Part shown: positions 5,745-22,066 of the stretch, one piece after another
Position numbering within the stretch: position 1 is the first letter of the stretch
Layout of the letters: the number at the start of each line of letters is the position of its first letter
DNA from: Mariprofundus sp.
Lineage (GTDB): Bacteria; Pseudomonadota; Zetaproteobacteria; Mariprofundales; Mariprofundaceae
Direction of reading: 5' to 3'
DNA: 24,000 nucleotides
Assembly (NCBI GenBank): GCA_030951025.1
Contig: JAUZQK010000064.1
Location: 8-24,007, forward strand
Notes under the pieces: model-generated
What the model was told of the DNA's origin: nothing
Seen by the model: the letters and a program-made list of their open reading frames with translations, nothing else
Database searches by the model: none
Translations under genes and position numbers: made by a program

Positions 5745-5821
5745 TGGCGGAGCGGACGGGACTCGAACCCGCGACCTCCGGCGTGACAGGCCGGCATTCT
5801 AACCAACTGAACTACCACTCC
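5745..5821 (-). tRNA. tRNA-Asp (anticodon GTC)
   Basis: The 77-nt reverse complement GGAGTGGTAGTTCAGTTGGTTAGAATGCCGGCCTGTCACGCCGGAGGTCGCGGGTTCGAGTCCCGTCCGCTCCGCCA folds as a cloverleaf. Anticodon loop CTGTCAC, T-loop GGTTCGAGTCC, encoded CCA. Very close to E. coli tRNA-Asp as I recall it. Confidence 0.95.
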
Positions 5822-5881
5822 AGTAGCGGCGCGCAACGTAATCATTCACGATGCTAAAATCAACCTTTTATTAACCGGTTG

Positions 5882-5913
5882 AAAAAAATCAGGCTCTGTA
5901 TTGACAGAGCCTG
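5882..5913 (-). terminator. Rho-independent terminator between tRNA-Val and tRNA-Asp
   Basis: Minus strand: CAGGCTCTGT, loop CAAT, ACAGAGCCTG (perfect 10-bp stem, 5890-5913), followed by ATTTTTTT (5889-5882). Confidence 0.8.
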
Positions 5914-5919
5914 TTTGTA

Positions 5920-5995
5920 TGGTGGGCGCTGCAGGGCTCGAACCTGCGACCTACGGCTTGTAAGGCCGTTGCTCTCCCAGCTGAGCTAAGCGCCC
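5920..5995 (-). tRNA. tRNA-Val (anticodon TAC)
   Basis: The 76-nt reverse complement GGGCGCTTAGCTCAGCTGGGAGAGCAACGGCCTTACAAGCCGTAGGTCGCAGGTTCGAGCCCTGCAGCGCCCACCA folds as a cloverleaf. Anticodon loop CTTACAA, encoded CCA. Confidence 0.95.
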
Positions 5996-6026
5996 GTAAC
6001 AAGGTTTGAATCTTGTTTTATTAGAA

Positions 6027-6040
6027 GCGGGTTTCCCCGC
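6027..6040 (-). terminator. Possible weak terminator or attenuator hairpin after hupB
   Basis: Minus strand: GCGGG-GAAA-CCCGC, 8 nt after the hupB stop, followed by TTCTAATAAAAC (poor U-tract). tRNA-Val lies directly downstream, so read-through is plausible. Confidence 0.35.
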
Positions 6041-6047
6041 CATCTAA

Positions 6048-6320
6048 TTATTTAACAGCGTCTTTCAGAGCCTTACCAGGCTTGAATTTAGGCGCTTTAG
6101 ATGCTGCAACCTGAATAGCTTCACCAGTCCGTGGGTTACGCGCGGTGCGTGCTGCGCGATCTGCTACTGAAAATGTACCAAACCCAACCAGGCTTACTGA
6201 ATCGCCATTAGCCAGAGTGCTAGTAATGCCACTGAGTACTGCTTCAACGGCATCTGCTGCTGATATTTTACTCAAACCAGCGTTCTCGGCTACATAGTTT
6301 ATCAAATCTGCTTTATTCAT
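6048..6320 (-). CDS. hupB: Nucleoid-associated DNA-binding protein HU (beta-type)
   Basis: 90-aa protein MNKADLINYVAENAGLSK...GFGTFSVADRAARTARNPRTGEAIQVAASKAPKFKPGKALKDAV, the canonical HU/IHF signature. GGAGG lies 6 nt upstream of the ATG at 6320. The track's longer start at 6338 is unlikely. The position downstream of lon matches classic synteny. Confidence 0.95.
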   Translation of the reverse strand: MNKADLINYVAENAGLSKISAADAVEAVLSGITSTLANGDSVSLVGFGTFSVADRAARTARNPRTGEAIQVAASKAPKFKPGKALKDAVK

Positions 6321-6403
6321 TTTTTCCTCCCGCCACATTCAATGGGTCGCGAACTATACGCAAAGAACCCTATGTCCTGTCAACTTATTTTTTTGTTATT
6401 TAT

Positions 6404-8875
6404 TTAATGTGCCACCGTCGAGTTATCATCCATTTTATCCGACAAACCACCTTCCAGATTATCGTCCAAATAGATGCCCGAAACAACCCCCGGCACAAAA
6501 TGTGCGGCGATACTTATACCGGCTGGCAAGCGAGTCAAGGCATGGTCTAGCACCTCATCCATGTTTTTCACCACATGCACTTCAAGACCGGCCAACACAT
6601 CAGCGTGAATGTCTTGTAAGTCCTTTGCATTTTCTACTGGAATGATCGCTTCAGTCAAACCACCACGATGCGCGGCCAGTAGTTTTTCTTTTAATCCACC
6701 GATGGGTAAGGCCTTGCCTCGCAAGGTGATTTCACCGGTCATACAGACATGCTTTTTGATCGGAATACCGGTCAGCGCCGACACAATGGATGTAGCCATG
6801 CCAAGCCCGGCTGAAGGGCCATCTTTGGGGATGCCACCTTCGGGCACATGCACATGAATATCGACATGCTGGTGAAAGTCCGGCTTTAAGCCCAATTGTG
6901 CGGCACGTGAGCGCACATAGGTCAGCGCAGCCTGAATCGATTCCTGCATCACATCACCCAACTGGCCAGTGACAGTCAGCTTACCCTTGCCCGGCATCAA
7001 CGCGGTTTCAATCTGCAGCAACTCACCACCGACTTCAGTCCAAGCCAGGCCGGTGACAACACCGATTTGATCTTCTTCTTCAGCCAAGCCAAAACGGTAT
7101 TTGCGCACCCCTAGATAGGTCTCAATATCTGTGGCAGCGAGCTTCATGCTGGCGTTTTCTTCTACCTGCACAATATGACGCGCTACCTTGCGGCATAGCT
7201 TGGCCAGCGTGCGCGATAAACCACGCACACCCGCTTCACGGGTATAATAACGAATGATTTCAGTTAAAGCCGAATCTTCGAGATCCAATTGATCTTTTTT
7301 CAGGCCATGGTTGCGGCGCTGCTTGTTGATCAAATAACGCCGTGCAATTTCCAACTTTTCATGCTCGGTGTAGCCGGAAATACGAATAATCTCCATGCGA
7401 TCAAGCAATGGCCCCGGAATATTCAGACTGTTGGCCGTGGTGATAAACATGACTTCGGAGAGATCATAATCGACTTCCATATAATGATCGGCAAAGGTGT
7501 GATTTTGCTCCGGATCTAATACTTCCAGCAGTGCCGAGGATGGGTCGCCACGAAAATCGGAACCCAGTTTATCAATTTCATCGAATAGAAATAAAGGGTT
7601 CTTGGTACCAGCCTTCTTCATGGATTGAATCACTTTACCTGGCATTGAGCCGATATAAGTGCGGCGGTGCCCACGAATCTCTGCTTCATCGCGTACGCCG
7701 CCGAGACTCATGCGCACATATTTGCGCTTGGTGGCTCGGGCAATCGATTTGGCCAGCGATGTTTTACCCACACCCGGCGGCCCCACAAAACACAGGATCG
7801 GCCCTTTCATTTTGCGTACCAGTTTAAGCACAGCCAGATGTTCCAGCACGCGCTCTTTGACTTTTTCCAGCCCATAATGATCTTCATCGAGCACATGCTC
7901 GGCGGCGCTGATATCTTTGCTTACACGCGAGCGTTTTTTCCATGGAATATCAATCAACCAATCGAGATAATTTCGTACAACCGTGGCTTCCGAGCTCATT
8001 GGCGGCATCATTTTTAAGCGTTTAAATTCTGCTTCTGCTTTTTCTTTGGCTTCAGCACTCAGTCCCAGCTTTTGGATTTTGGCTTCGAGCTCCTGCAAAT
8101 CGCTTTCGCCATCTTCATCACCCAGCTCTTTTTGAATGGCCTTCATTTGTTCGGACAAATAATAATCGCGCTGTGACTTTTCCATTTGACGTTTAACACG
8201 GCTGCGAATGCGTTTATCGACTTGCATCAGCTCCATTTCATCTTCCATGTGAGCATATAAGCGTTCCAGACGGGCAATAACACTCGGTATTTCAAGCAAT
8301 TCTTGTTTATCTTCGACTTTAATATTTAAGTGTGCAGCGATGGTATCAGCCAGTTTATCCGGCTCATCGACGGCCGATACAGATACCATCACTTCCGGAG
8401 GCAGCTTTTTATTCAGCTTCACATAGGACTCGAATTTCTGAATCAATGAGCGCGCCACATTATCCTGCTCGCGCTCATCTTCATCAGATTCGGACATCAG
8501 TGTATAATGACCACATAGATAATCCTCATCGGCCATTAACGAATCAACCAAGACACGAGCACCACCCTCAACCAGCACCTTGATGGTACCATCGGGTAAT
8601 TTTAATAATTGTAGAATATTGCCCAGCGTACCGATGCTATAGAGTTCATCAGCACCTGGATCATCGTGGGAGGCATCTTTCTGCGCTAGCAACAGGATTT
8701 TTTTATCCGAAGCCATCACCTCTTCCAATGCTTTGACTGATTTATCACGCCCTACAAACAACGGCACAATCATGTGTGGAAAGACAACAATATCACGCAA
8801 AGGCAGGACAGGCAGAACACCCTCATGATCTTGTTCGTTGTTGATGTTTGTTTCGTCTTTATTCCATTCAGCCAT
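6404..8875 (-). CDS. lon: ATP-dependent Lon protease (LonA type)
   Basis: N-terminal LON domain (LPVLPLRDIVVFPHMIVPLFVGR). Walker A GPPGVGKTS. Walker B FLFDEIDK. Protease domain with catalytic Ser in PKDGPSAGL and Lys in TGEITLRGKALPIGGLKEK. About 30 aa longer at the C-terminus than E. coli Lon as I recall it. Confidence 0.97.
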   Translation of the reverse strand: MAEWNKDETNINNEQDHEGVLPVLPLRDIVVFPHMIVPLFVGRDKSVKALEEVMASDKKILLLAQKDASHDDPGADELYSIGTLGNILQLLKLPDGTIKVLVEGGARVLVDSLMADEDYLCGHYTLMSESDEDEREQDNVARSLIQKFESYVKLNKKLPPEVMVSVSAVDEPDKLADTIAAHLNIKVEDKQELLEIPSVIARLERLYAHMEDEMELMQVDKRIRSRVKRQMEKSQRDYYLSEQMKAIQKELGDEDGESDLQELEAKIQKLGLSAEAKEKAEAEFKRLKMMPPMSSEATVVRNYLDWLIDIPWKKRSRVSKDISAAEHVLDEDHYGLEKVKERVLEHLAVLKLVRKMKGPILCFVGPPGVGKTSLAKSIARATKRKYVRMSLGGVRDEAEIRGHRRTYIGSMPGKVIQSMKKAGTKNPLFLFDEIDKLGSDFRGDPSSALLEVLDPEQNHTFADHYMEVDYDLSEVMFITTANSLNIPGPLLDRMEIIRISGYTEHEKLEIARRYLINKQRRNHGLKKDQLDLEDSALTEIIRYYTREAGVRGLSRTLAKLCRKVARHIVQVEENASMKLAATDIETYLGVRKYRFGLAEEEDQIGVVTGLAWTEVGGELLQIETALMPGKGKLTVTGQLGDVMQESIQAALTYVRSRAAQLGLKPDFHQHVDIHVHVPEGGIPKDGPSAGLGMATSIVSALTGIPIKKHVCMTGEITLRGKALPIGGLKEKLLAAHRGGLTEAIIPVENAKDLQDIHADVLAGLEVHVVKNMDEVLDHALTRLPAGISIAAHFVPGVVSGIYLDDNLEGGLSDKMDDNSTVAH

Positions 8876-9043
8876 GCGTACTCCTCATCTTACTGTTGCA
8901 GGTATTGATCGTGTGAATTCAGCAGAACTTCAGCGCTAAGCCAATTGATTGCTAGTTTGTTGTTTCGTGTGGGTTCCAGCGTTACGTTGCAACGCTGGTT
9001 TTCACCCAGGCGATTGAAGCAGGATTGTTCAGTCAGTTACTGC

Positions 9044-10318
9044 TCAGGAGGCAGCTTCAATCTTGCTGTCTTCGCCATCGCCTTTCAAAAGCAGCAAGGG
9101 TTTGCCTTTATCTTCAACGGCATCGCGATTGACTACGCATTTTTCCACCCCGGTCATGGTTGGAATATCGTACATCACATCGAGCATCACCAATTCCATG
9201 ATGGCACGCAGACCACGCGCACCAGTTTTACGTTTGATGGCTTTTTCAGCAATTGCTTCCAAAGCACCGTCGGTAAAGGATAGTTCAACATGATCATAGG
9301 CCATGAGTGCGCCGTACTGTTTGGTTAAAGCGTTTTTTGGCTCTGTCAGGATGCGTAATAAAGATTCTTTATCCAGCAGGTTTAAGGTGGCAACAGCCGG
9401 CAAGCGACCAACCAGTTCAGGGATCAAACCAAATTTGATCAAGTCTTCCGGTTCAACCTGGCTTAAAATAACACCAATATCTTTTTCATCCTCACTCGAT
9501 ACTGCCGCCCCGAAACCGATAGAGCGTGCCTTACCCTTGGCCTCAATGAGTTTTTCCAAGCCGGCAAAAGCACCGCCGAGGATAAACAGAATATTGGTTG
9601 TATCGACTTGCATAAGCTCTTGTTGCGGGTGTTTGCGGCCACCTTGCGGAGGTACTGCAGCAACCGTACCTTCAATCAGCTTCAATAACGCTTGCTGCAC
9701 ACCTTCACCGGATACATCACGGGTGATTGATGGGCCTTCGGATTTGCGTGAGAGCTTATCGATTTCATCGATGTAAATGATACCGCGCTGAGCTTTTTCG
9801 ATATCACCATCAGCCGCCTGCAACAGTTTCAGGATAATGTTTTCAACATCTTCACCCACATAACCGGCTTCAGTCAGGGTGGTGGCATCAGCCATAACAA
9901 AGGGCACATCAAACACACGCGCCAGAGTTTGAGCCAATAGTGTTTTACCGCAGCCTGTAGGGCCTAGCAGCAACACATTGGATTTGGAGATTTCGACATC
10001 GTTCTTTTCATTGTGATCAATGCGCTTGTAGTGGTTGTACACCGCCACAGATAGCAGCCGTTTGGAGCTTTCCTGGCCAATGACATATTCATCCAGAAAA
10101 GCCTTGATTTCGGTCGGGCGTGGCAGGCCGGTTTCTTCTTTTGTTTCAGATTGATCGTTGCCGGATAGCTCTTCAACGATAATTTCATTGCATAGTTCAA
10201 TGCATTCGTCACAGATGAACACAGTCGGGCCTGCAATAAGTTTTTTGACATCGTGCTGTGATTTACCACAGAACGAGCAGAATAAAGTATTATCGCCGTT
10301 ACTATTCTGTGTCGTCAT
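9044..10318 (-). CDS. clpX: ATP-dependent Clp protease ATP-binding subunit ClpX
   Basis: Zinc-finger [30 protein letters not shown]. Walker [13 protein letters not shown]. Walker [13 protein letters not shown]-loop region RSIGFGA. I prefer the start at 10318 (MTTQNSNGD.., 424 aa) because GGAGG lies 5 nt upstream. This start overlaps the clpP 3' end by 17 nt. Confidence 0.97.
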
Positions 10319-10925
10319 CCGAACCTCCGGCAGCACCGATTTCCGCCCGGGAAGTCAGCACATCATCAACCAAACCGTAATCCTTGGCCTGTTGTGCGGT
10401 CAAGAAATAATCCCGCTCCACATCATCACACAGCTTTTCCAGCGGTTGACCGGTATGCTCAGCCATCATTTCATTCAGACGCTGTTTCAAGCTCAGGATT
10501 TCGCGTGCATGGATTTCAATATCAGTAGCCTGACCCTGAAAACCACCGAGTGGCTGATGAATCATGATGCGTGAATTGGGCAAGGAGAAGCGCTTGCCTT
10601 TAGCGCCTGCGGCCAATAAATGCGCCCCCATGCTGGCGGCCTGGCCGACACAGAGGGTAGAAACATCACAGCGGATATATTGCATGGTGTCGTAAATCGC
10701 CAAGCCTGCGGTAACCAATCCACCGGGGCTATTGATGTACAGATAAATATCTTTATCCGGCCCTTCGGACTCCAGAAACAACAATTGAGCGATCACGAGA
10801 TTGGAGATATGATCATCCACTGGGCCATTCAAAAAGATGATGCGCTCTTTCAGTAAACGGGAAAAGATATCGTAAGAACGCTCTCCCCGCGCAGTATGCT
10901 CAACAACAACCGGAACTAGACTCAT
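10302..10925 (-). CDS. clpP: ATP-dependent Clp protease proteolytic subunit ClpP
   Basis: Catalytic triad contexts GQAASMGA (Ser), IMIHQPLGG (His) and [11 protein letters not shown] (Asp). Short acidic C-terminal tail GGSDDDTE. Confidence 0.97.
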
Positions 10926-11027
10926 GTATTCTCCTTATCAATCATCATCGCTTTACGATGCAGCGCATGCCCGCTGGGCTTACGCAAAAATCATACCAGA
11001 ATGAATCCGGCTGTTATTCTATTCGAT

Positions 11028-12353
11028 CTATTGTTCTTGCTCAGCCTGCCAGTCGGATAATGATTTGCTGGCGGCTTTTGTTTTGGCCTGTTCAACAATG
11101 TAATTGATGCATTTGCGTTCCAGCAGAGCATCTTTCATGGATGCGATTTGTTCCGGCTGACTTAAAATCCATGTTTTAAACTGCTCACGCTGTTCTTCAG
11201 GATATTGCTGGGACTGACGATCAATTTCGCCATCGAGTTCCGCATCATCGACATGCATATCTGATAACTCACGCACTTGCTGCAACAAAATAGACAGCTT
11301 TAAACCACGCTCGGAACGGGTACGTATTTCCAACTTGAAGGCATCATCTTTAAGCATATCTTCCGGTGCTTCCATGCCTTGCTGCTGCATGTTGTTGAGT
11401 ACACGTTTGGTGGTTTCCTGCATGTCCTGCGCCACCAATGGCTCTGGTAGTTCCATCTCATTGGCTGCAATCAGGGCATCGAGAGCGGCTTCGCGTGTGC
11501 TTGTGAATGAAGCTTGTTCAGCTTCTTCATTCAAGCGGTTCTGTGTATCAGCCTTTAAGGCGGCGGCATCATCAAAGCCAACCATGCCAGCCAGTGCATC
11601 TGCATCTGCAGCGGTGATGGCTTTACCGACCGATTTGATATGCGTTGCAAACACAGCGGCCTTGCCAGCCAAATGTGCAGCCTGATAATCAGCCGGGAAA
11701 CTTACTTCCACAGTCGCATCCTCACCCGCTTTCTTACCAATCAACTGCTCTTCAAAACCCGGAATGAAACGCGCTTCACCGAGCACGAGTGGCACATCTT
11801 CGCCTTTACCACCTTCAAACTCTTCATCATCAATCGAACCAACAAAGTCAATATGTAGCTGGTCGCCATTTTCAGCTGCGCGTTCGGCTTCAACTTCATA
11901 TTTCACCTGCGACTTCATCAAGCGCTCAATTACTTGTTCGATATCGCTGTCTTCAACGCTGACGGTGGTTTCATCAAACTTCAGCGTGCTTAGATCAGCC
12001 AGTTTAACTTCCGGCCATACCGCGACTTTCATGGTGAACTCAAAGCCTTCGGTTGGTTGTACTGCCGGAATATCAATCATGGGCTGTACGGCAGGGTTCA
12101 AACCTGAGGATTCAATAGAAGCGACATAGTGTGTTTGAATCAATTCGGAAACGGTATCTTCATTCAATTTGGAGCCGAATTGTTTTTTGATGACATGGAC
12201 AGGTGTTTTACCTGGACGGAAACCCGGTAATTTGGCTTGCAATGTTAGCTTTTTAATCTGATCTGCATAAATGCGATCATATTCACCCTGGGCTACGGTG
12301 ACACGCACTTCATATTCATGGCTTGCAAGTTCTTTTACATCTGTCTTAATCAT
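11028..12353 (-). CDS. tig: Trigger factor (ribosome-associated peptidyl-prolyl isomerase chaperone)
   Basis: Ribosome-binding signature GFRPGKTPVHVIKKQFG. Central FKBP-like region (DFVGSIDDEEFEGGKGED..LGEARFIPGFEEQLIGKKAG). Positioned upstream of clpPX. The ATG at 12353 (MIKTDVK) has GGAGA 6 nt upstream and is preferred over the ATG at 12365. Confidence 0.95.
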   Translation of the reverse strand: MIKTDVKELASHEYEVRVTVAQGEYDRIYADQIKKLTLQAKLPGFRPGKTPVHVIKKQFGSKLNEDTVSELIQTHYVASIESSGLNPAVQPMIDIPAVQPTEGFEFTMKVAVWPEVKLADLSTLKFDETTVSVEDSDIEQVIERLMKSQVKYEVEAERAAENGDQLHIDFVGSIDDEEFEGGKGEDVPLVLGEARFIPGFEEQLIGKKAGEDATVEVSFPADYQAAHLAGKAAVFATHIKSVGKAITAADADALAGMVGFDDAAALKADTQNRLNEEAEQASFTSTREAALDALIAANEMELPEPLVAQDMQETTKRVLNNMQQQGMEAPEDMLKDDAFKLEIRTRSERGLKLSILLQQVRELSDMHVDDAELDGEIDRQSQQYPEEQREQFKTWILSQPEQIASMKDALLERKCINYIVEQAKTKAASKSLSDWQAEQEQ

Positions 12354-12415
12354 CGAATTCTCCATTCAGTAACATTAAAAACAGGATGCCCTGAAAACAG
12401 AACACCCTGTTGGTA

Positions 12416-12499
12416 TGGTACGAGAGGGGGGACTCGAACCCCCACACCATAGGTACTGGTACCTAAAACCAGCGCGTCTACCAATTCCGCCACCCTCGC
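12416..12499 (-). tRNA. tRNA-Leu (anticodon TAG)
   Basis: The 84-nt reverse complement GCGAGGGTGGCGGAATTGGTAGACGCGCTGGTTTTAGGTACCAGTACCTATGGTGTGGGGGTTCGAGTCCCCCCTCTCGTACCA. Anticodon arm CTGGT-TTTAGGT-ACCAG. Long variable arm typical of class II Leu tRNAs. The acceptor stem includes two G-U pairs. Encoded CCA. Confidence 0.93.
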
Positions 12500-13581: not shown

Positions 13582-14154
13582 TTAGAATTTTCGAAACTGG
13601 CCAACGACTTCGCCATAAATATCGAGTGATGTTTCGGGATAGATATTGGGATAATCTTCATTGGCAGGCTCTAAAAACGGGCCTTTTGAGCCGGTGCGCA
13701 GATACTTGATGGTAAAATCACCATCGACAATGGCCACGACAATTTTGCCGATATTGGGATTGATATTGCGCTCAACAATGAGGAAATCGCCACCATGAAT
13801 GCCGGCATGAATCATCGATTCGCCACGCACTTCAACCAATACCGTGCTGGATGGGTTTTCAACCAGATAGTCATCAATGGTGATGGCATCGCCGAGTGCT
13901 TCGGTGGCAGGGCTAGCAAAACCAGCCGGTGCAACGCCAACATGCGGGCGCGCAAAAAACATATTGGCTGGCGACAAACGACCACCCGGAGCCTTGCTGA
14001 TATAGCCGGCAAAAATCATGCGATCAATAAACTTCACCGCACCCTGTTTGCTGACACCTACCAGTGCGGCTATTTCTGCATAGGATGGAATTAAGCGATG
14101 CAGGGCATAATAATCTTGTAGTCGTCCGAGATAGAAAGGATCTTTATTCACCAT
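13582..14154 (-). CDS. LexA-family repressor (N-terminal winged-HTH, C-terminal S24 self-cleaving peptidase domain)
   Basis: 190 aa. The N-terminus resembles the LexA DNA-binding wHTH (IPSYAEIAALVGVSKQGAVKFIDRMIFAGYISK). Candidate Ala-Gly scissile bond in GVAPAGFASP (A77-G78). Ser nucleophile in VRGESM (S113). Lys in DFTIKYL (K150). It is not the canonical gammaproteobacterial LexA sequence, so it may be a second or accessory paralog. Confidence 0.85.
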   Translation of the reverse strand: MVNKDPFYLGRLQDYYALHRLIPSYAEIAALVGVSKQGAVKFIDRMIFAGYISKAPGGRLSPANMFFARPHVGVAPAGFASPATEALGDAITIDDYLVENPSSTVLVEVRGESMIHAGIHGGDFLIVERNINPNIGKIVVAIVDGDFTIKYLRTGSKGPFLEPANEDYPNIYPETSLDIYGEVVGQFRKF

Positions 14155-14317: not shown

Positions 14318-16189
14318 CTAGCTCGGAATCAAATAGGTGAGTTCCTGCAACGCCCCATCAGCCAGAACCGATTTCAATTTCTGTTTGGTTGCGCGCCCCT
14401 CATCAAACCAGACCTGAGCGATATTATTCATACCCGTAATGGCCACATGCTTACCCTCAAGCGATTCCTGCGAAGCCAAAAAGTTATAGCCCTGCACAAG
14501 CTTGCTCTGATCGCCAATCGTGATGCCGGGGTTGGTGTTGTGCAGCGGGCTACTGGTGAGCTGAACTGCGGGAATGCGATTCCCCAGCATCGCCGTCCGT
14601 GCAAAGGAGTAATGCACATCGCCAGATAGAAACGTGACAAAATTCAGTTTGCTCTCCTCCGCCAGCATGGCTTCAAGAGAGCGGAAACCGGCCACCCATG
14701 ATTCTGCATCCAGCGCAGCTAATGAACCGGGGATGAGTTTCATCAGTGATAAAGCCGCGCCCTGCACACCTTCGACAAAGCGAAAGCCAAACACGGGGGT
14801 CGGCGAAATAAGGCAAATCGAATCACAATCCTTTACCGCCTGCTTTATCTCATCAGCCAATTCATCCAAGGCCTCGGCATGCATGAGTTTCGCAGGCTGT
14901 TGATGATAGAGTTTGCGACAAGTGCGCGTATCCATGGCGATCACAGCAGGCTGAGTTGGCGTGGAAAAAAACCATCTACCCGGTTTTGATGCCCAAAGCA
15001 GAGCATCGTACTGTTCCGCATCATCGCCATCATGGCGATGGGCATTTAAATGCTTCTCCAGCAGTTCAATGAAACCTTCGCTAAAGCGCTCAGGGTCATT
15101 CCCCCAAGCCTGAAAAGCCCAATACGATGCCAATGCATTGGCGACAATTCTGCGCGTACGCGGGCTTTTGCCTTGCACTTGCTCAACCCAATCACGGGAA
15201 ATATTCCAGTCATCAGTAACTTCGTGATCGTCACACTGCATATATACCGAAACATTAGCCAATAGTCGGCGCACTTCGGGCAGCGTTTGCGCAAAAGCCT
15301 CCAGATTTTTTTTCTCTTCCCGATAATACCTTTTTGAAATACGATGATTGAACTGGTGTTTGACTGCCTGCCAGTCCTGAAATTCAGGCTTTGCCCCCTG
15401 ACCTCCAAACGCACACAAATACATTGCCGCGTACTCACCAAATGTCATCAGGTGGTTATCCGTCGCCCCCGACGAAAAACCTTCATGCTTACCATTCAGG
15501 TTCCAACTCACCTCTGGAGCCCGGTGATACAGCTCTACGTCGCACACCTTATGTGCATCATTTGCCGTGTGATATCCCCCATCCATCGGCAGCCGCCGAC
15601 GCGGCATGGTCTCATCCCATCCTGTCACGTCTCTGCCGAGCCCTATGAGATGCCAAAGCATGGCTCCACCAACATCATCGGCATAAATCTGATCGCCGGT
15701 CATCAACAGCATGGAAGGGCGATTGACTGAATCATCAATCGTATCACCTACAACCTTGGATCCTGTTGCCAGTTGATCTCGCGAGCCCCAATCACGATGC
15801 ACGGCTGCGGCATGCGGTTTACGGCAAGAGCCATGCAATATATTTTTCAGCTCTCCCGGCACGATAAAGCTGGGATACGATTCGCCCGGATAACAAAAAT
15901 CATCATTACCATGCAACAGGCTGTTAGCATTTTCAATGAGATCGTAGTGCAGAATATTTTCTGCATAGGATGCATCCTGCCAGTCCAGCCAGATGATATG
16001 CACAAACAGGTGTTCGCCCATGCGCGCCGTACGCTGTGTGGATTGAACATTCAAACCATGCAGCGACCCGTCTGCCTTACGCTTAAACACCGCCCCGGAA
16101 AAGTCTCGGGGTTCTGTTGTTGCCACCCATATTGCCACCTTTTGTAGCTCAGTACGCCGCACAATCGGCCCTGCCAGAAAGTCACTCAT
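14318..16189 (-). CDS. PhoD-like metallophosphatase / phosphodiesterase, no Tat or Sec signal (predicted cytoplasmic)
   Basis: 623 aa from the ATG at 16189. PhoD_N-like start GPIVRRTELQKVAIWVAT. Metallophosphatase motifs LHGSCRKPH, LLMTGDQIYADDV, CDDHEVTDDWN and LSGDVHYSF. The ATG overlaps the upstream KAP gene's stop by 8 nt (ATGAGTGA, 16182-16189). Confidence 0.8.
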   Translation of the reverse strand: MSDFLAGPIVRRTELQKVAIWVATTEPRDFSGAVFKRKADGSLHGLNVQSTQRTARMGEHLFVHIIWLDWQDASYAENILHYDLIENANSLLHGNDDFCYPGESYPSFIVPGELKNILHGSCRKPHAAAVHRDWGSRDQLATGSKVVGDTIDDSVNRPSMLLMTGDQIYADDVGGAMLWHLIGLGRDVTGWDETMPRRRLPMDGGYHTANDAHKVCDVELYHRAPEVSWNLNGKHEGFSSGATDNHLMTFGEYAAMYLCAFGGQGAKPEFQDWQAVKHQFNHRISKRYYREEKKNLEAFAQTLPEVRRLLANVSVYMQCDDHEVTDDWNISRDWVEQVQGKSPRTRRIVANALASYWAFQAWGNDPERFSEGFIELLEKHLNAHRHDGDDAEQYDALLWASKPGRWFFSTPTQPAVIAMDTRTCRKLYHQQPAKLMHAEALDELADEIKQAVKDCDSICLISPTPVFGFRFVEGVQGAALSLMKLIPGSLAALDAESWVAGFRSLEAMLAEESKLNFVTFLSGDVHYSFARTAMLGNRIPAVQLTSSPLHNTNPGITIGDQSKLVQGYNFLASQESLEGKHVAITGMNNIAQVWFDEGRATKQKLKSVLADGALQELTYLIPS

Positions 16190-18578
16190 ATCTCCCCCCC
16201 TTCCATTTTCCACCATTGACCATCACAGCAATTGCTTTAGCTGTAAGTGGTGAAATGACATCCCCATTCTTCAGCTTGCATCCAGCCGTTATTTTCTTTA
16301 ATGATTCATGGCCAATTAAAGCATGCAGATAATCGGGTAACTGATGCACGCCCGACTCTTTCTCAGTCGCGGCAGCTGCGGCAAATACCTGAACCTGGTC
16401 AGGAAAGCGCGCAAGATATTCCGCCACTCGGGGAAATCGAACTTCAAGGATAGTCCAGAGCGCCACTTGATCCAGAAAAGCCTCATCCATATCGAGAACG
16501 CCGCTTACCCTTGCTAAATTCACATACACGCCAAACGCATTCACTATCAACTTCATACTTCTCGGGTTGGCATCCATCAAATCAACAAAGCGTGTGAGCC
16601 GGTGCCGGTTTGCAGTCGCAAAGCTTTCAGTCTTCGCCGCTTTAATCACTGCGGCAGCAATCATAGCCTGTTTATGAATAACAGTTTTCGGCTCACTGCG
16701 CATATAGTCATTGAGTTCAGATTCACTGGATACATTTTGAATCTCTTTTTCTACAACGGCATAAGCCTCATCAAAACTTACTACAGAATCACTTTTCTCT
16801 CTCGATGTGATTTCATCCATAAACGACACTTTCAATTCAGCCGAGATCGGCGGCAATGCAACACTTAATTGAAACAACTTCTCCAGAAAGCGATAACCCG
16901 TTGGCTGTTCAACCTGCGCAATTTTACCGTTGAATGTTTCATAGCCCTCCTCAAAGCAGGCCGATATCCAGGTTCGATCAGCCGCGACCAGGAAAAATAC
17001 TTTTGGATGAGAATACAGTGTGTGAAGACTCTCCAATAATTCAATGACATAAGAGCTTTTGCATCGATCCAGATCATCAATAAACACGATGACAGGCCTG
17101 TCAAACCCATCAACCATTTTTCTGTAATAGGAACGAATCTTTTCCATCGGATCGGAAGACAAACGTCTAAACATGTGAGCTGAAGCAGCAAAGCCTGGCA
17201 TGAGTTTGCTCAACAAAACCGCAACGGTACTTGCTAAAGCAAGAATCGATGCAATCGACTTCATGACATCTCCGCCCAACGTTAATGCTAATCCAAGCAG
17301 CACCAGAATTGTTGCCAACATTATAAAAACAGGTCGCCTATCCCCTTCCTCAATTCGATACCAGTAATTTTTCCAGTGCAATTCTTTACTGTTTGGTGCG
17401 CCTTTTATGCCCTCTTGAACAATCCGATCCAACAACCCCCACCAGGGCGGGTCGACATGTTGGTTCCTCCATGCATTAAAATGGATACCAATCCATGGCC
17501 GTTGCACTTTGCTCTCATCATGCAGGCATTGATCCAACTGATGCATAAATGTTGTTTTACCTGCTCCCCAGCGTCCACAAAGGTGCAGAACAAAACTATC
17601 TCCTTTGATACTTTGCCCAGCCTCAACAGGTAAATTTAGAGATTCATGCCACAGACGATCCAACCAGCGTGCTAAATATTCCGCGAATGCAAATCTGTTA
17701 AATGAATCATGTTCAGAAGGTTGATCGGAACTAATAATAGTTGCATTCGACAGCAGTTCTGAAGGAGCAACCCGCGTGCCTCCCCCATCAATAAGCTTGT
17801 TAAGCTTCTCTGCAACTTGTTCTGGAACTTTGAATACTGTGCCCTGAGGGCTGCGAAGAAACTGAAATTCATCCTTCTGAATGGACTCAATCACCACATC
17901 TCTGGATATTATTGGCTCCAACCATTTTACCGGCAAGGAAAGACGAACATCCTTCTTGGGCGTTTCTGACTCCTCTCCTTTGTCTGTAAATTCGAGATGG
18001 CTAATCTCCCCCCAAGCGACCATACCGCTTGCAGCTCGGTTGTGCTTACGCTCATCTTCATCCTTGAAGGCTCGCCAAAGAAAAAACACATCGCCAAGCT
18101 GCATCTCGTCCTGAAACCGGTTTATACGCCAAGGCACTGCCTCCCCCTGTTTCGCCGATTCCAGCCAGTCCGTTTTTTCATCATCCGGCTTATACTGAAA
18201 TAACCAATAACGCTTCACATGCTTTTCAGTCGTTCCATCATTGAATTCGGGCGATAGCTCTGGAGCTGTCCTATCATTTCTCTTCTTTTTCTTCGATGTT
18301 TTATCTTTCCTGATGCTCTGAATATCAGAGCCTTGTGGCTGAAACTTCTGATGCGATTCAGTTTCAAAACGCATCAACATAGCCTGCGTATCCGGCCCCA
18401 CAATACCATCAGCAGACAAACCATTCTTAGCCTGGAACTCACCCACAACATGACCGGTACGCTTACCAAACACACCATCCGGCTCACCCGCATCGAAGCC
18501 TTGCTGGCGAAGTAATTCCTGCAAGGCTTTCACCTGATCACCCTCTGACCCTTCGCGCAATACCCGTTCACTTTCCAT
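16182..18578 (-). CDS. Multidomain KAP-family P-loop NTPase: N-terminal PG_binding_1-like domain, EVE/PUA-like domain, KAP NTPase with an inserted TM hairpin
   Basis: 798 aa. PGB-like domain at aa 5-71 (EGDQVKALQELLRQQGFDAGEPDGVFGKRTGHVVGEFQAKNGLSADGIVGPDT). EVE-like domain at aa ~122-262 (RYWLFQYKPDD..W..RF..MQLGDVFFLW..GMVAWGEI..FLRSPQGTVFKVPEQ). Walker A GRWGAGKTT (nt 17550-17576). IHFNAWRNQ. Two hydrophobic helices at aa ~415-460 (nt ~17199-17336) lie between Walker A and Walker B. Walker B VIVFIDDLDRC (nt 17061-17093). A TM insertion in the P-loop domain plus a DDLDRC-type Walker B is the KAP hallmark. Confidence 0.85.
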   Translation of the reverse strand: MESERVLREGSEGDQVKALQELLRQQGFDAGEPDGVFGKRTGHVVGEFQAKNGLSADGIVGPDTQAMLMRFETESHQKFQPQGSDIQSIRKDKTSKKKKRNDRTAPELSPEFNDGTTEKHVKRYWLFQYKPDDEKTDWLESAKQGEAVPWRINRFQDEMQLGDVFFLWRAFKDEDERKHNRAASGMVAWGEISHLEFTDKGEESETPKKDVRLSLPVKWLEPIISRDVVIESIQKDEFQFLRSPQGTVFKVPEQVAEKLNKLIDGGGTRVAPSELLSNATIISSDQPSEHDSFNRFAFAEYLARWLDRLWHESLNLPVEAGQSIKGDSFVLHLCGRWGAGKTTFMHQLDQCLHDESKVQRPWIGIHFNAWRNQHVDPPWWGLLDRIVQEGIKGAPNSKELHWKNYWYRIEEGDRRPVFIMLATILVLLGLALTLGGDVMKSIASILALASTVAVLLSKLMPGFAASAHMFRRLSSDPMEKIRSYYRKMVDGFDRPVIVFIDDLDRCKSSYVIELLESLHTLYSHPKVFFLVAADRTWISACFEEGYETFNGKIAQVEQPTGYRFLEKLFQLSVALPPISAELKVSFMDEITSREKSDSVVSFDEAYAVVEKEIQNVSSESELNDYMRSEPKTVIHKQAMIAAAVIKAAKTESFATANRHRLTRFVDLMDANPRSMKLIVNAFGVYVNLARVSGVLDMDEAFLDQVALWTILEVRFPRVAEYLARFPDQVQVFAAAAATEKESGVHQLPDYLHALIGHESLKKITAGCKLKNGDVISPLTAKAIAVMVNGGKWKGGRYE

Positions 18579-18614: not shown

Positions 18615-19502
18615 TTACAAGCTGAGCAACATGTCGATGAGATCAGCTTGCGGAAACAAATCGAATTTATCCTTTCTAATATTGCCATGCGTCCACATGC
18701 CTTTGATTTTACCGTTGTATGCCTGTGCGTTATATTCAAAGGCTTGAGCACCCTTTTGTTTAATTGCAGCAACCAGGCCAGCGCGCACATCAATCGAGTC
18801 ACGCTCGGCAATCCATAAAATAAATGCCTTGAGCGTTTCAATTTGTTTATCTGAATAAGCATGCCACTGGCGATGTCCCCGAAATGGCTTGGCCAAGGTC
18901 ACGATTTGATCGGCGACAATAGGTGTTCCCACATAGGTTTTCCCACCCTTGGCATAACTGAAATTACAGACCTCAATCGCCGCTGAATGTGTATGCATGT
19001 GCTGCGAGCCGTTTTTACCCAGATGCCAGCCGTAACCGCCTTCCGGCACACATTGCAGCAACTCACCATCATAACGATCATCATTGCCTTTAACGGAACG
19101 GCCACCGAGCACAAACTCCGTTGCAATTGTACCGCGATTATCCTTCGCCCAACCATCCACAGTATGATACGGATTATGCCAGCCAGCAGTATGATGCAAA
19201 AACAAATATGCCTTGGCTGTCGGCCCTGCCAGATATTCGCCTTTGGGCAGAAAGTATTTATGCACCAGTAGGTCTTCTGTGGCCGCATACACTCTCTCAG
19301 AATTATCCGTTGTGGCATGATTCTCTCGAATAGCCGCAAGCGTTTGTGAGCCAACGATCCCATCAACCATCAAACCATGCTCCTTCTGGTAGGCTTCGAC
19401 TGCCTGCTTGGTTCCTGCTCCAAACACCCCGTCATCTGCAATGCCTAAGGCCTGTTGCAACTCAATCACCTCTCGCCCTCTTGAGCCCTGTCTTAATAAC
19501 AT
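18615..19502 (-). CDS. N-acetylmuramoyl-L-alanine amidase (Amidase_2 / T7-lysozyme-PGRP fold) with an N-terminal PG_binding_1 domain; endolysin-like, no signal peptide
   Basis: 295 aa from the ATG at 19502, which has AGGAGG 8 nt upstream. The track start at 19589 is a GTG without an SD. PGB: LLRQGSRGREVIELQQALGIADDGVFGAGTKQAVEAYQKEHGLMVDGIVGSQT. Amidase_2 motifs FLHHTAG (Zn His), HSAAIEVCN and WTHGNIRKDKFDLFP (C-terminal His/Asp-Lys motif). Confidence 0.85.
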   Translation of the reverse strand: MLLRQGSRGREVIELQQALGIADDGVFGAGTKQAVEAYQKEHGLMVDGIVGSQTLAAIRENHATTDNSERVYAATEDLLVHKYFLPKGEYLAGPTAKAYLFLHHTAGWHNPYHTVDGWAKDNRGTIATEFVLGGRSVKGNDDRYDGELLQCVPEGGYGWHLGKNGSQHMHTHSAAIEVCNFSYAKGGKTYVGTPIVADQIVTLAKPFRGHRQWHAYSDKQIETLKAFILWIAERDSIDVRAGLVAAIKQKGAQAFEYNAQAYNGKIKGMWTHGNIRKDKFDLFPQADLIDMLLSL

Positions 19503-19618: not shown

Positions 19619-21274
19619 TCACGTGGCCTCTAGCGATAACATGCGACGCTCCTGTTTTTCAAACCCGATGATGATCGGCGCCCATTGTTTGATGCTTTTG
19701 TATAAGCGCAACAAAGCCATGAGCAGTGCTGGCCAGCCCGTAAATATGCTTTTTTTGATCAAATCGATAACCAGCTTGAGCAGCGATGCTAAAAAACCGC
19801 ATGAGACGGCAAACATGGAAGATTTATTCTCCAGGTAAGCGGCTATCTTGCTGACATCATTTGCCTGTGCGAACTCATATACCAGCGTTGTAAAGTCGAA
19901 ATCATTATCCCTATGCATCCGCAATACAGGAATGTTTGAATTAATATTGAGGCCGCGCATAGGAAACTTAATTTCTTTTCTAGCAAAAAAAGCCAGTGAT
20001 CCTGTCACTCCCGAAACAACCGCCTGAAGTGCTTCAAATGAATTACGAATATAAAGATAAGCGACTCGAGACAGGTTTTTAAGCATTGCCTTGACCGAAG
20101 ATACCGCCTTTTTAAGCATGGTCTTAAACCAAGCCCACGCCCGTTTAATACCATCCCACATCCGTGCGCCAATGGAATAGATATTATCCCACATTTCCTG
20201 CACAACAGATTTCATGTTTTTCTTTGGACTCCTGCTTTTAGCCAGTTTTTTTATTTCCTGATAAACGTCTTCTGACTCGGTTGGCATCACCACGTCAGCG
20301 GCTATAAGGCGCTGTGAAATACTGGAAAAAAACTTAGGGTACGTTAATTTGATCAGCCCCATCGCTTTTGATTTCGCCTTATCAGACGTGGTTCCAAGGC
20401 TTGTCCAATACACGAGCAACTGCTTATAAAGCTGGCTCTTCGCCTTTAAATCCAAGCCATTTGCTCGCATGCTATTGGCACTTCCCCCCGTATATCCTTT
20501 AGGACGAATATTATAACCAAGCAACCACAGCTCGATCTTGGCCATAGCGACAATAAATGGTTTGATTGTTTTTTTATGCTCAACACCTTTAGGGATTTGG
20601 CCTGATGCAAGCCTGGCTACCATTTCATCCTGATCAAAAAGTAGCTTCAGCGTTGCCAGACTCACAACACTTAAACCCGCAGCGTCCGCCCACCCCAACA
20701 CCTGAGCAAGCTTAGAAAAGCCCGCTAATGCGTCATTTAGCAAATCAATCAGCAAATCAATCGTGACCATGGTTTTTAAGTGGCCGGGGGCTCGAGAGAC
20801 CAAACCCAACGCATAAAGTCTCAGGTATGCTGCTCGTATCAAGGCATCACATGGCTCACCCTTAACAAACCATTTCTCCAAATTTGATGCTTCCTCAAAA
20901 CTCACCATTTGCTGCAACGCCAGCCAGGTTTTTTCGCCCACCCAGCCATCAGCCTTGAGACTACTGATACCAAAGGCATCATGTTGAAACAGCTTCACAC
21001 CAGCCTGATAACTTGCATCAAGCTGTGAAGGTACGGAATCAGTATCAAGGTAACCCAATAAAAAAAGCCTATTGGCAATCACTTTTAAGCGGGAATTTGA
21101 ATATGCAGAACGCGATCCACCAGGATTCGATTCGGGTAACGGCGTAATAATTTGATCATCACCAGCTTGAAGCATGGCCTGCTCTAACAAACCATATTGT
21201 TTAACCATATCTCCCTCATCCGGCAAACCACTCAAGCAAGCAGGAGAAATAGTTAAATCGACACGTTGGGGCAT
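19619..21274 (-). CDS. Hypothetical 551-aa protein with PGB-like helical repeat(s) and a hydrophobic or amphipathic C-terminus
   Basis: aa 64-122 (VIANRLFLLGYLDTD..YQAGVKLFQHDAFGISSLKADGWVGEKTWLALQQ) resembles PG_binding_1. Weaker LxxLGY-type repeats occur at aa ~145-195 and ~245-295. The C-terminal aa ~484-537 is hydrophobic (MFAVSCGFLASLLKLVIDLI, FTGWPALLMALLRLY, WAPIIIGF). The start ATG shares one base with the upstream stop (TAATG, 21272-21276). Confidence 0.6.
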   Translation of the reverse strand: MPQRVDLTISPACLSGLPDEGDMVKQYGLLEQAMLQAGDDQIITPLPESNPGGSRSAYSNSRLKVIANRLFLLGYLDTDSVPSQLDASYQAGVKLFQHDAFGISSLKADGWVGEKTWLALQQMVSFEEASNLEKWFVKGEPCDALIRAAYLRLYALGLVSRAPGHLKTMVTIDLLIDLLNDALAGFSKLAQVLGWADAAGLSVVSLATLKLLFDQDEMVARLASGQIPKGVEHKKTIKPFIVAMAKIELWLLGYNIRPKGYTGGSANSMRANGLDLKAKSQLYKQLLVYWTSLGTTSDKAKSKAMGLIKLTYPKFFSSISQRLIAADVVMPTESEDVYQEIKKLAKSRSPKKNMKSVVQEMWDNIYSIGARMWDGIKRAWAWFKTMLKKAVSSVKAMLKNLSRVAYLYIRNSFEALQAVVSGVTGSLAFFARKEIKFPMRGLNINSNIPVLRMHRDNDFDFTTLVYEFAQANDVSKIAAYLENKSSMFAVSCGFLASLLKLVIDLIKKSIFTGWPALLMALLRLYKSIKQWAPIIIGFEKQERRMLSLEAT

Positions 21275-21654
21275 TATTTATTTGAGCTAAGCCCAACCAT
21301 ACCGCCAAACAACGCCAGCAACCCATGTCTGGTATCAATGCCCGCCTTCACCGATGCGGCATGCACTTTCTGAATGTGTTCTTGAAAATCACCCTCAGGC
21401 ACCAGGTTAATCGCATCGCCATCACACATCATCTTGGTCACTGCACATAGCTTCAGGTTATTGCCCGTCGCTTTTGCAGCTGCCAGCAGATCTGTAATAC
21501 TTTTAAGTTTCCCATCATCACCCAACGCCGTATCAACGGCCACATCGATTGAACCGGTATAGGTTTGCACCTCAAGTGAAGACATATCTTCCAAAAAGTC
21601 ACCAATTGATTCCAACCCTCTGGTCAGCTTTCCTTTTGTATCAGGCATATCCAT
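21274..21654 (-). CDS. Hypothetical protein (126 aa, or 124 aa from the ATG at 21648)
   Basis: ORF with AGGAG immediately upstream. Spacing favours the second ATG at 21648. Its stop overlaps the next gene's start. Acidic and soluble-looking. No family recognised. Confidence 0.55.
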   Translation of the reverse strand: MDMPDTKGKLTRGLESIGDFLEDMSSLEVQTYTGSIDVAVDTALGDDGKLKSITDLLAAAKATGNNLKLCAVTKMMCDGDAINLVPEGDFQEHIQKVHAASVKAGIDTRHGLLALFGGMVGLSSNK

Positions 21655-21669
21655 CTCCTATTGTCGTGG

Positions 21670-22014
21670 TCACTTCATTTGATTTCGAAAAGCGGCCACA
21701 TCTTTTGCGAAATCACTACAATACACAGCAATACTCTGATTAAACTGTTCAATACCATCAGAATTATTGGCTATTTCATGTTTTAAACGTTTGCCATCTG
21801 CAACCCGCAAAACATCAGAGGCAAGCAACCTTAAATTCCGAGATAACTCAGCATATTTTAGATATTCATCGTAACTGGCTGGCTGCTTGATTCCCTTGCT
21901 TCGCCCCACGAAATCGCCAACGAAGGTACGCACCACGACCTGTTGTGTATGACCTCGTCGTAGCCATCGCTTCATTTTCGCCAATATATTCTGGAATCTA
22001 TTCATCGTAGACAT
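21670..22014 (-). CDS. Hypothetical protein (114 aa), first gene of the operon
   Basis: ORF with a purine-rich GAGAGAGGGG upstream of GTG-ATG. ATG at 22014 taken as the start. Basic N-terminus (KMKRWLRRGH). No family recognised. Only 15 nt separate it from the next ORF. Confidence 0.5.
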   Translation of the reverse strand: MSTMNRFQNILAKMKRWLRRGHTQQVVVRTFVGDFVGRSKGIKQPASYDEYLKYAELSRNLRLLASDVLRVADGKRLKHEIANNSDGIEQFNQSIAVYCSDFAKDVAAFRNQMK

Positions 22015-22066
22015 CACCCAGCCCCTCTCTCAAAGCTCAATGCTGCACATAGATATTAAAATGTAT

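Follow-up and report, generated by a model that had tools for sequence, protein, structure and literature searches.

The subject of this analysis is a 24,000-nucleotide stretch of Mariprofundus sp. (Zetaproteobacteria; GenBank assembly GCA_030951025.1, contig JAUZQK010000064.1, positions 8 to 24,007 of the forward strand; the whole stretch is referred to as the window), and in particular a gene on its minus strand (16182..18578, stop codon included, ATG start) whose 798-residue product joins a PG_binding_1 domain (hereafter PGB), an EVE domain and a KAP P-loop NTPase in a single chain. The gene is supported by the open reading frame list, by Pfam and by eight close homologues, i.e. an orthologue group of eight protein clusters with 47-96% identity for which Mariprofundus ferrooxydans is the sole named source. 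The protein is a bona fide member of the KAP family that contains genuine EVE and PG_binding_1 domains, and we propose, on the basis of sequence and analogy and with a probability of about 0.5, that it is at once sensor and switch in a six-gene conflict operon, most likely an anti-phage operon of the abortive-infection type. The system would be a KAP-NTPase conflict system in which the sensor combination and the lytic-enzyme partners are new, and most likely it represents an undescribed variant of the bacterial anti-phage systems that "sense and lyse".

Read from its N-terminus, the protein begins with the PGB (aa 13-68; 18375..18542), which Pfam recovers with an E-value of 5e-17 (62.3 bits against a cutoff of 23), and continues with a Lys-rich linker (aa 75-120; 18219..18356) that includes the stretch KDKTSKKKKRND at aa 91-102 (nt 18273-18308), is disordered in the structural model (pLDDT <50 across aa 75-120) and is variable or deleted in orthologues. 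The EVE/PUA-like domain (aa 123-262; 17793..18212) opens with RYWLFQYKPDD at aa 123-133 and is followed by the KAP NTPase domain (aa 326-688; 16515..17603), with Walker A GRWGAGKTT at aa 335-343 (nt 17550-17576), Walker B VIVFIDDLDRC at aa 496-506 (nt 17061-17093) and, between the two, a predicted transmembrane hairpin (aa 417-436 and 441-463; 17190..17330). The first-pass annotation, which had been made from the sequence alone, had proposed this same order of modules: its ranges for the PGB and the EVE domain differ by no more than a few codons from those given here, the linker and the two hydrophobic helices ahead of Walker B are present, and the Walker motifs stand where it had placed them.

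Pfam KAP_NTPase (PF07693) is matched over aa 326-688 with 102.5 bits against a cutoff of 20 (E-value 3e-29). Among 18 homologues, W337, G338, G340 and K341 do not vary in Walker A, nor do D501, D504, R505 and C506 in Walker B, and D502 is nearly invariant; judged by its sequence the NTPase has both motifs intact. Together, the defence and KAP profiles cover aa 278-706, the KAP part being matched by the PADLOC defence models of PDC-S20 (1e-23), PifA and QatA, and the best solved fold match of the NTPase part is RdrA of the RADAR system. The two hydrophobic helices between the Walker motifs reach Kyte-Doolittle means of 2.64 and 2.05 over 19 residues and are modelled as helices by AlphaFold2 (AF2; 414-433 and 438-457); four residues (DVMK) lie between them, RR precedes the first helix and K..RR follows the second, and the hairpin is kept in all homologues despite a varying sequence. 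Transmembrane helices inserted within the P-loop domain, the feature that characterizes KAP NTPases, are therewith predicted from both hydropathy and model.

The hairpin also bears on the placement of the N-terminal modules. Hydropathy reveals neither a signal peptide nor a transmembrane segment ahead of Walker A, and since a two-helix hairpin brings the chain back to where it entered the membrane and both halves of the P-loop domain need ATP, the PGB, the linker and the EVE domain are predicted to be cytoplasmic, which agrees with the earlier suggestion that PGB and EVE lie on the NTPase side of the membrane. Under this topology the PGB does not have the extracytoplasmic placement by which a PG_binding_1 domain has access to the sacculus. 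In GenBank, the M. ferrooxydans orthologues of the KAP protein (P0002) and of a 551-residue protein of the same operon (P0301) are both named 'peptidoglycan-binding protein', a name that for the KAP protein leaves NTPase and EVE domain out of sight and suggests a role in the periplasm, contrary to the predicted topology.

On the single sequence the Pfam call of EVE (aa 123-259) is borderline, its 23.6 bits being just above the cutoff of 23, and a search of the region against the PDB yields no match; a profile of seven sequences ranks the founding EVE structures first, be it with E-values of just 0.1-0.5. The same seven-sequence family profile, searched against 1.84 billion cluster representatives, gives 242 matches at E < 1e-3, and 40 of the 58 best representatives match Pfam EVE (top E-value 1e-20). 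An alignment of 50 sequences headed by the domain of the 798-residue protein was then used for both a profile search of the PDB and an AF2 model. The profile matches the EVE structures 2ar1, 2gbs, 2eve, 2g2x and 1zce with E-values of 7e-10 to 6e-7, and in addition THYN1, the whole range of PDB matches being 7e-10 to 1e-3. The model (aa 112-278; pLDDT 84, pTM 0.79) was compared with the PDB by Foldseek, and every significant match is an EVE, ASCH or YTH domain with a TM-score of at most 0.66, among which human THYN1 bound to 5-methylcytosine DNA (0.62) and the EVE-HNH modification-dependent endonuclease VcaM4I and 2gbs (0.59-0.66). The columns that are nearly invariant in the 50 relatives are W125, Q128, W150, G162-D163, W168, G246 and F249, of which the aromatic residues W125, W150, W168 and F249 are candidates for a base pocket. 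Both profile and model thus indicate that the weak call is correct and that a PUA-like fold is present, as the first-pass annotation had proposed.

A search for the same architecture shows that its parts have very different distributions. A scan of one genome per species confines full-length matches to two Zetaproteobacterial metagenome-assembled genomes, and besides the 798-residue protein the combination of PGB, EVE and KAP is found in five clusters, all organism-labelled members of which are Zetaproteobacteria/Mariprofundus. Two orthologues, P0007 (703 aa) and P0008 (729 aa), keep EVE and KAP and miss the PGB. Of the 148 listed cluster representatives (50% identity) with this EVE module, on the other hand, 41 are EVE-KAP fusions, and Pfam confirms the KAP domain in 27 of the top 58. 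The other fusion partners of the same EVE clade are McrB-type AAA_5, HNH, Mrr_N and TIR/SEFIR domains, a set that, together with the KAP fusions and at the level of sequence, is the typical distribution of an immune sensor. The PGB is absent from all other EVE-KAPs among the 41 listed fusions, the N-terminal extensions of which have no Pfam match. EVE-KAP is therefore apparently a widespread, undescribed architecture on which the PGB is a rare accessory. We found no description of EVE-KAP, PGB-KAP or the triple fusion in the literature, in which an early mention in the original KAP paper of 2004 is possible; the fullest survey of EVE contexts contains none of the words KAP, P-loop, NTPase and peptidoglycan (PMC7641849). 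The earlier view that the architecture is unusual and had not been characterized consequently holds for the triple fusion, with its approximately six clusters, but not for its EVE-KAP core. More generally, the first-pass annotation was right about domains, hairpin and sidedness and is in its interpretation partly supported; how common EVE-KAP is and the accessory nature of the PGB were not visible to it, and the operon context lay beyond its coordinates.

One EVE-KAP is located on a conjugative plasmid of Rhizobium leguminosarum (NZ_CP016290.1; L101 1096-9133), where it is annotated as two coding sequences and possibly frameshifted. Its neighbours are an IS481 transposase, a RelA/SpoT-domain gene, a divergent 'peptidoglycan-binding domain-containing protein' and the His-Xaa-Ser radical-SAM system HxsABC.

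Accessory as it may be, the PGB of the KAP protein is by its sequence a live domain. A repeated D-G-(hydrophobic)2-G-x-x-T motif typifies the PGBs of endolysins, and both repeats are intact (DGVFGKRT, aa 34-41; DGIVGPDT, aa 57-64); the identity with the PGBs of phage endolysins is 41-53%. Among the PGB-bearing orthologues it is 64-69% identical in the more distant ones and 91% in the closest (P0001), as compared to 68-85% for the EVE domain and 80-90% for the C-terminal half of the KAP domain. The ratios of nonsynonymous to synonymous substitutions (dN/dS) relative to five orthologues are 0.16-0.54 for the PGB, 0.10-0.20 for the EVE domain and 0.03-0.14 for the KAP C-terminal half; all three domains are under purifying selection. 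The linker has ratios of ~0.5-2 in four of the five comparisons and an identity of 26-50% among the orthologues, and is partly deleted in P0004 and P0005; its disorder in the model and its partial deletion indicate that the PGB is a tethered module.

PGBs have also been joined to KAP domains that lack an EVE domain. Ruegeria sp. ANG-S4 encodes a PG_binding_1-KAP of 892 residues with at least two PGB copies (L039 9956-12634), the gene of which adjoins an integrase and phage-like replication genes, and Malonomonas rubra one of 669 residues (L069 9467-11476). Both are stand-alone genes with no PGB partner nearby, and on the sequence evidence they represent independent fusions of a PGB to KAPs of the same subfamily. 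Across 64 KAPs of the subfamily the N-terminal slot is hypervariable, with pentapeptide repeats, WD40, Clp_N, PGB, TIR, caspase and NB-ARC domains, but in most members it is unassigned; a KAP-seeded scan of metagenomes recovered mostly non-EVE members of the subfamily. Because PGB-KAPs stand alone in two other lineages and the slot otherwise holds sensor-type repeats, we favour ligand sensing as the role of the PGB, the candidate ligands being fragments or precursors of peptidoglycan that occur in the cytoplasm. Dual sensing by PGB and EVE, which the first-pass annotation suggested, would be a reasonable reading of the sequence, and the PGB may alternatively have been repurposed.

The KAP gene is the fifth of six tightly packed genes, all on the minus strand. 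The first encodes a 115-residue protein with no known domain (21670..22017), with orthologues in L002 (46%) and L004 (31%), and the second a 126-residue protein (21274..21654) with orthologues in the same loci (75% and 55%) and no match in Pfam, PADLOC, PHROGs or NCBIfam. The third, a 551-residue protein (19619..21274), has a weak N-terminal PG_binding_1 match (aa 64-120; Pfam E-value 0.007), a long helical middle and, by hydropathy, a hydrophobic C-terminus (aa 488-506 and beyond); the protein is conserved in L002, L004, L006 and L010. Its family counts ~25 proteins, mostly from Zetaproteobacteria, and since several of these carry PF01471 and are named peptidoglycan-binding protein, the operon can be said to encode three PGB proteins. 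The fourth gene encodes a 295-residue endolysin-like protein (18615..19502; start set, following the homologues, at Met30 of a 324-residue open reading frame) with an N-terminal PG_binding_1 and an Amidase_2 domain, as supported by Pfam, by PHROG endolysin families and by endolysin PGBs in the PDB. The last gene starts 6 nt after the KAP stop codon and encodes a 623-residue PhoD-like metallophosphoesterase (14318..16189; start set at Met10 of a 632-residue open reading frame), which matches Pfam PhoD (E-value 2e-7) and displays the motifs GDQIYADD, DDHEVTDDW and GDVHYS; its family has more than 2000 matches. The PhoD-like protein has neither a signal nor a Tat peptide, and a signal peptide was seen in none of the six operon proteins.

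With the exception of L096, which encodes P0006, a PhoD-like gene follows the KAP gene after 4-6 nt in every Zetaproteobacterial locus that reaches far enough (here and in L001, L002, L004, L005, L010 and L011). On the upstream side, an orthologue of the 295-residue protein, with PGB and Amidase_2, directly precedes the KAP gene here and in L001, L002, L010, L094 and L095. In L004 and L006 its place is taken by a pesticin/T4-lysozyme-like protein with half a PGB motif only, and the KAP has no PGB. In L091 (5648-9846) a 209-residue holin-like protein with two transmembrane segments is followed by a 404-residue protein with Peptidase_M15_4, PGB-like and GH19 domains and then by the EVE-KAP P0030, which is 33% identical to the 798-residue protein and has BrnT/BrnA and PIN/PhD toxin-antitoxin pairs nearby. 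Imperialibacter sp. (L042 6880-11533, and the same in L049) encodes in one operon a 221-residue CHAP and PG_binding_1 protein, a 339-residue patatin and a 961-residue KAP of the same subfamily, the 490-residue N-terminus of which is of the non-EVE type and has no assigned domain; a patatin gene also precedes P0009. Going by these sequences, the catalytic type of the peptidoglycan hydrolase upstream of EVE-KAP shifts between lineages; besides Amidase_2, four further types of wall hydrolase accompany relatives of the KAP, as do enzymes of the lipase type (patatin and Tle1-like). The absence of signal peptides from envelope enzymes was read for the cassette in the window and for the Imperialibacter CHAP protein, which has none either.

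The cassette of M. ferrooxydans carries an insert between the homologue of the 551-residue protein and the amidase (L001 4381-7358, L002 6012-8989), which consists of a T6SS_Tle1-like (DUF2235) lipase, a 299-residue protein with a signal-like N-terminus that is possibly an immunity or outer-membrane protein, and a 92-residue protein. Two further loci may be mentioned here. In L098/L099 (7982-14482) a distant PhoD-like homologue (34% identity) is part of a run of Lipase_3, PhoD-like, Zn-dependent phospholipase C, two proteins without an assignment and GH19, which, without a KAP, looks like a battery of envelope-degrading enzymes. In L093 (5774-11021) the EVE-KAP P0032 stands beside a 348-residue protein that weakly matches DUF676 esterases and contains a lipase-like HSLG motif, and is also flanked by two proteins (379 and 272 aa) with signal-peptide-like N-termini and no assigned domain.

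The co-occurrence of three PGB-bearing proteins in one operon, none with a visible signal peptide, can also be read in a different way, namely that the PGB is a protein-protein module by which the effectors would be held on the membrane-bound KAP, or the amidase kept inactive, until the NTPase fires. There are analogies for such an adaptor in the homotypic 'effector-associated domains' of NTPase conflict systems and in the PG_binding_1-like inhibitory propeptide of matrix metalloproteases, whose prodomain belongs to the PF01471 fold. For every PGB-bearing KAP whose upstream gene can be seen, that gene encodes a PGB-amidase, L096 excepted, and the absence of a PGB from the KAP in L004 and L006 coincides with the half motif in the hydrolase; pairing through effector-associated domains has moreover been described for lysozyme and peptidase effectors (PMC7159879). 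Nevertheless, the PGB-KAPs of Ruegeria and Malonomonas have no PGB partner nearby, L091 pairs a PGB-containing hydrolase with a KAP that has no PGB, P0006 (L096) has a PGB and no adjacent amidase, and the PGB of the 551-residue protein has no pairwise similarity to that of the KAP. In every locus the PGBs of KAP and amidase are 34-44% identical, as against 45-53% for unrelated PGBs from databases and phages, which gives no indication that the two co-evolved or arose by a recent duplication; a recent transfer of the amidase PGB into the KAP was rejected on the same numbers, the two being no closer than the KAP PGB is to those of phage endolysins. We consider the adaptor role unlikely, and retain ligand sensing as the favoured role of the PGB.

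The genomic setting, in turn, brings up the possibility that the cassette is not primarily directed against phages. Amidase_2 is a family that also includes AmpD, the cytoplasmic amidase of peptidoglycan recycling, and the cassette could be a module for envelope-damage surveillance or peptidoglycan recycling, in which the PGB-KAP would sense cytosolic muropeptides, the AmpD-like Amidase_2 protein would clear the signal and set the threshold, the system would respond by remodelling the envelope or by controlled autolysis, and the EVE domain would have a housekeeping role related to RNA or tRNA. The Mariprofundus site, which is chromosomal, syntenic, next to housekeeping genes and free of mobile-element genes, fits such a role, as do the amidase family itself and the PhoD-like relatives whose chromosomal neighbours are lipase, phospholipase C and GH19 genes; EVE domains are found in many non-defence contexts as well (PMC7641849). 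The replacement of the amidase by lysozyme-like, M15 plus GH19 and CHAP enzymes in relatives, however, fits interchangeable killing effectors better than an AmpD-like quencher of a signal. The family is also small, patchy and variable, its EVE clade is the one that is fused to McrB, HNH and TIR domains, and its KAP part matches defence models, all of which make such a function rather doubtful.

The nature of the enzymes suggests yet another explanation. Amidases, muramidases and lipases without signal peptides are classic cargo of the type VI secretion system (T6SS), which the cassette enzymes resemble, and they could thus be antibacterial effectors for export (Tae/Tge/Tle-like) or make up a lysis cassette derived from a phage, with the KAP as passenger or regulator. 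In M. ferrooxydans the T6SS_Tle1-like lipase is followed by the 299-residue signal-like protein, which could be its immunity protein; L091 has the order holin-like protein, endolysin, KAP; and the 551-residue protein weakly matches tape-measure proteins (PHROG). Neither the window nor any related locus examined, however, shows genes for VgrG, Hcp, PAAR, a baseplate or phage structural proteins, no immunity gene is evident for the amidase, and the 4-6 nt spacing of the KAP-PhoD pair is conserved even where the hydrolase changes. IMG/VR, moreover, holds distant KAP cores only and no EVE-KAP relatives, and the phage GenBank set matches the PGB alone, on which grounds a prophage origin was rejected. 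The same verdict was reached for a phage holin-endolysin cassette: an endolysin-like gene is present, but no holin was identified in the window and there are no flanking phage genes. Export or phage lysis therefore appears very improbable.

The reading we prefer, an abortive-infection-type conflict operon with the KAP protein as its sensor and switch, would work as follows. Near the membrane, the EVE domain would recognize base modifications foreign to the host in nucleic acid that enters the cell or is being replicated, the way it does in EVE-McrB and EVE-HNH, and the PGB would add a second input, for which recycled muropeptides or cell-wall precursors, altered when the wall is attacked, are the most parsimonious candidates. 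Ligand binding might then lead to a nucleotide-dependent oligomerization of the KAP at the membrane, by analogy with the heptameric ring of RdrA and the decameric pore of Tmn, and the assembly would make or gate a membrane lesion, or a hand-over step, that gives the co-encoded enzymes access to their substrates. The effectors, i.e. the PGB-Amidase_2 protein, the PhoD-like phosphoesterase and the membrane-associated 551-residue PGB protein, would kill the infected cell before phage are released. Several elements of this scheme have precedents: KAP NTPases with fused regions give phage defence that requires Walker B (PMC13552941), PifA causes membrane lesions and Tmn, a P-loop NTPase with an inserted transmembrane hairpin, forms a decameric pore (PMC13001434), and for conflict systems centred on an NTPase, effectors that hydrolyse peptidoglycan were predicted earlier (PMC7159879). 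The immediate same-strand neighbours of 132 subfamily KAPs include N6 methylases, Eco57I-type restriction-modification enzymes, the Lit peptidase (U49), patatin and phage lysozyme, a census that supports a defence flavour and yields no statistic on the enrichment of wall hydrolases.

Several observations weigh against this proposal. It implies that cytoplasmic hydrolases would pass the membrane, and we know of no precedent for a cytoplasmic ligand of PG_binding_1. Searches of the cassette proteins with Pfam, PADLOC, PHROGs and NCBIfam gave no nuclease family, which leaves the EVE input without an obvious nucleic-acid effector; the sole candidate for one in the cassette is the PhoD-like phosphoesterase. 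The link with hydrolases is recurrent and not universal, as P0008, P0031 and P0006 have no adjacent hydrolase, and across the wider subfamily the neighbours in the census of 132 are heterogeneous. Finally, the Zetaproteobacterial cassette occupies a conserved chromosomal site beside an ABC-F gene, where neither an integrase nor further defence genes nor a clear GC anomaly is seen, which places it outside a classical defence island.

Comparison with known systems shows which parts of the proposal have counterparts. The KAP defence NTPases PifA, QatA of QatABCD, PDC-S20 and EF_KAP of Enterococcus faecalis share with the 798-residue protein the KAP core, the intact Walker motifs and the membrane association. 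PifA mediates the exclusion of T7 by the F plasmid and acts at the membrane, and is reported to be without transmembrane helices (PMC13001434). EF_KAP has a variable fused region that, like its Walker B, is needed for defence (PMC13552941), and the 798-residue protein likewise has fused N-terminal modules. In contrast to the latter, however, none of PifA, QatA, PDC-S20 and EF_KAP has been described with an EVE domain, a PGB or peptidoglycan-hydrolase partners. An identity with QatA was rejected, as the score with the NCBIfam QatA model is 60.4 bits where 600 would be required and the cassette has no gene for QatB, a QueC-like QatC or a TatD-type QatD. Tmn has two transmembrane helices inside the P-loop domain like the 798-residue protein and differs from it in having no recognizable accessory domains and no enzyme partners; its decameric membrane pore is triggered by a phage protein (PMC13001434). 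Membership of the YobI/Tmn family could be dismissed, since PF20693 (YobI-ATPase) is not matched at E <= 0.1 and the resemblance is architectural only. RdrA of RADAR, the best solved fold match, forms heptameric rings but is soluble and paired with a deaminase.

On the sensing side, EVE-McrB/CoCoNuT and EVE-HNH (VcaM4I) have an EVE domain of the same clade and fold, which in EVE-McrB, as here, lies N-terminal to the NTPase. In type IV restriction the partner is the McrB GTPase, whereas it is a membrane-inserted KAP here, and the candidate effectors act on the envelope; that the 798-residue protein itself is a type IV restriction enzyme was rejected, as no nuclease domain or partner was found with Pfam, PADLOC, PHROGs and NCBIfam. 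Endolysins of phages of Gram-negative hosts (KZ144/gp144 type) combine an N-terminal PGB with a catalytic domain and have no signal peptide, just as the 295-residue protein. The cassette differs from phage endolysin cassettes in that a PGB is also fused to the NTPase, in its conservation as a chromosomal operon in Zetaproteobacteria and in the absence of phage structural, replication and integration genes. Animal NOD1 and NOD2 are cytosolic NTPase sensors of muropeptides, and the likeness is one of analogy only: an NTPase switch is combined with a cytosolic module for peptidoglycan-derived ligands, but the NTPase is a STAND NACHT rather than a KAP domain and the ligand-binding part consists of leucine-rich repeats instead of PG_binding_1. 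Plausibly, then, and by analogy, the 798-residue protein is an NTPase that switches at the membrane in the manner of PifA, EF_KAP or Tmn and senses in the manner of EVE-McrB.

The operon is bracketed by terminator-like hairpins at 22085-22066, between the gene of the 115-residue protein and the ABC-F gene, and at 14293-14278; in the scan for promoters and terminators the site counts were not above the shuffled expectation, and the positions alone are suggestive. It is flanked by housekeeping genes, with the ABC-F ATPase gene on one side and a LexA/UmuD-like gene, a CBS-domain gene, tRNA-Leu, tig-clpP-clpX-lon, tRNA-Val/Asp and thiI on the other. The LexA/UmuD-like gene (13582-14154, minus strand), immediately downstream of the cassette, encodes a 190-residue S24 peptidase with an N-terminal helix-turn-helix domain that scores below the cutoffs for LexA (70 versus 111 bits) and the UmuD subfamily (105.5 versus 110 bits). 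There is a promoter-like site at 14284-14255, and the gene is missing from the M. ferrooxydans locus. In M. ferrooxydans (L001/L002) the cassette is bordered by the ABC-F gene and by thiI, the latter following directly upon the PhoD-like gene. Relative to that arrangement, ~9 kb separate the PhoD-like gene from thiI in the window, among which tRNA-Leu (12416-12499) and tRNA-Val/Asp (5745-5995); the difference at 5745-12499 is a rearrangement bounded by tRNA genes.

KAP NTPases have only lately been tested as phage-defence proteins, and the presence of two N-terminal modules with predictable classes of ligands makes sensing by a KAP testable on purified domains. As a large and unrecognized architecture, EVE-KAP extends modification-dependent sensing beyond nucleases. 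That one subfamily of KAPs is linked to lipases and wall hydrolases devoid of signal peptides suggests lysis from within as the output, which raises the question by what route the enzymes pass the membrane. The occurrence of a PG_binding_1 domain with a predicted place in the cytoplasm in three independent KAP lineages challenges the default annotation 'peptidoglycan-binding protein'. The most far-reaching version of the proposal, to which we assign a low likelihood, is a bacterial counterpart of cytosolic muropeptide sensing, in which the KAP would integrate the signals of PGB and EVE and release the effectors via its own oligomeric lesion. If true, a KAP that responds to muropeptides and modified nucleic acid would constitute a new class of 'sense-and-lyse' immunity, built on a widespread EVE-KAP family.

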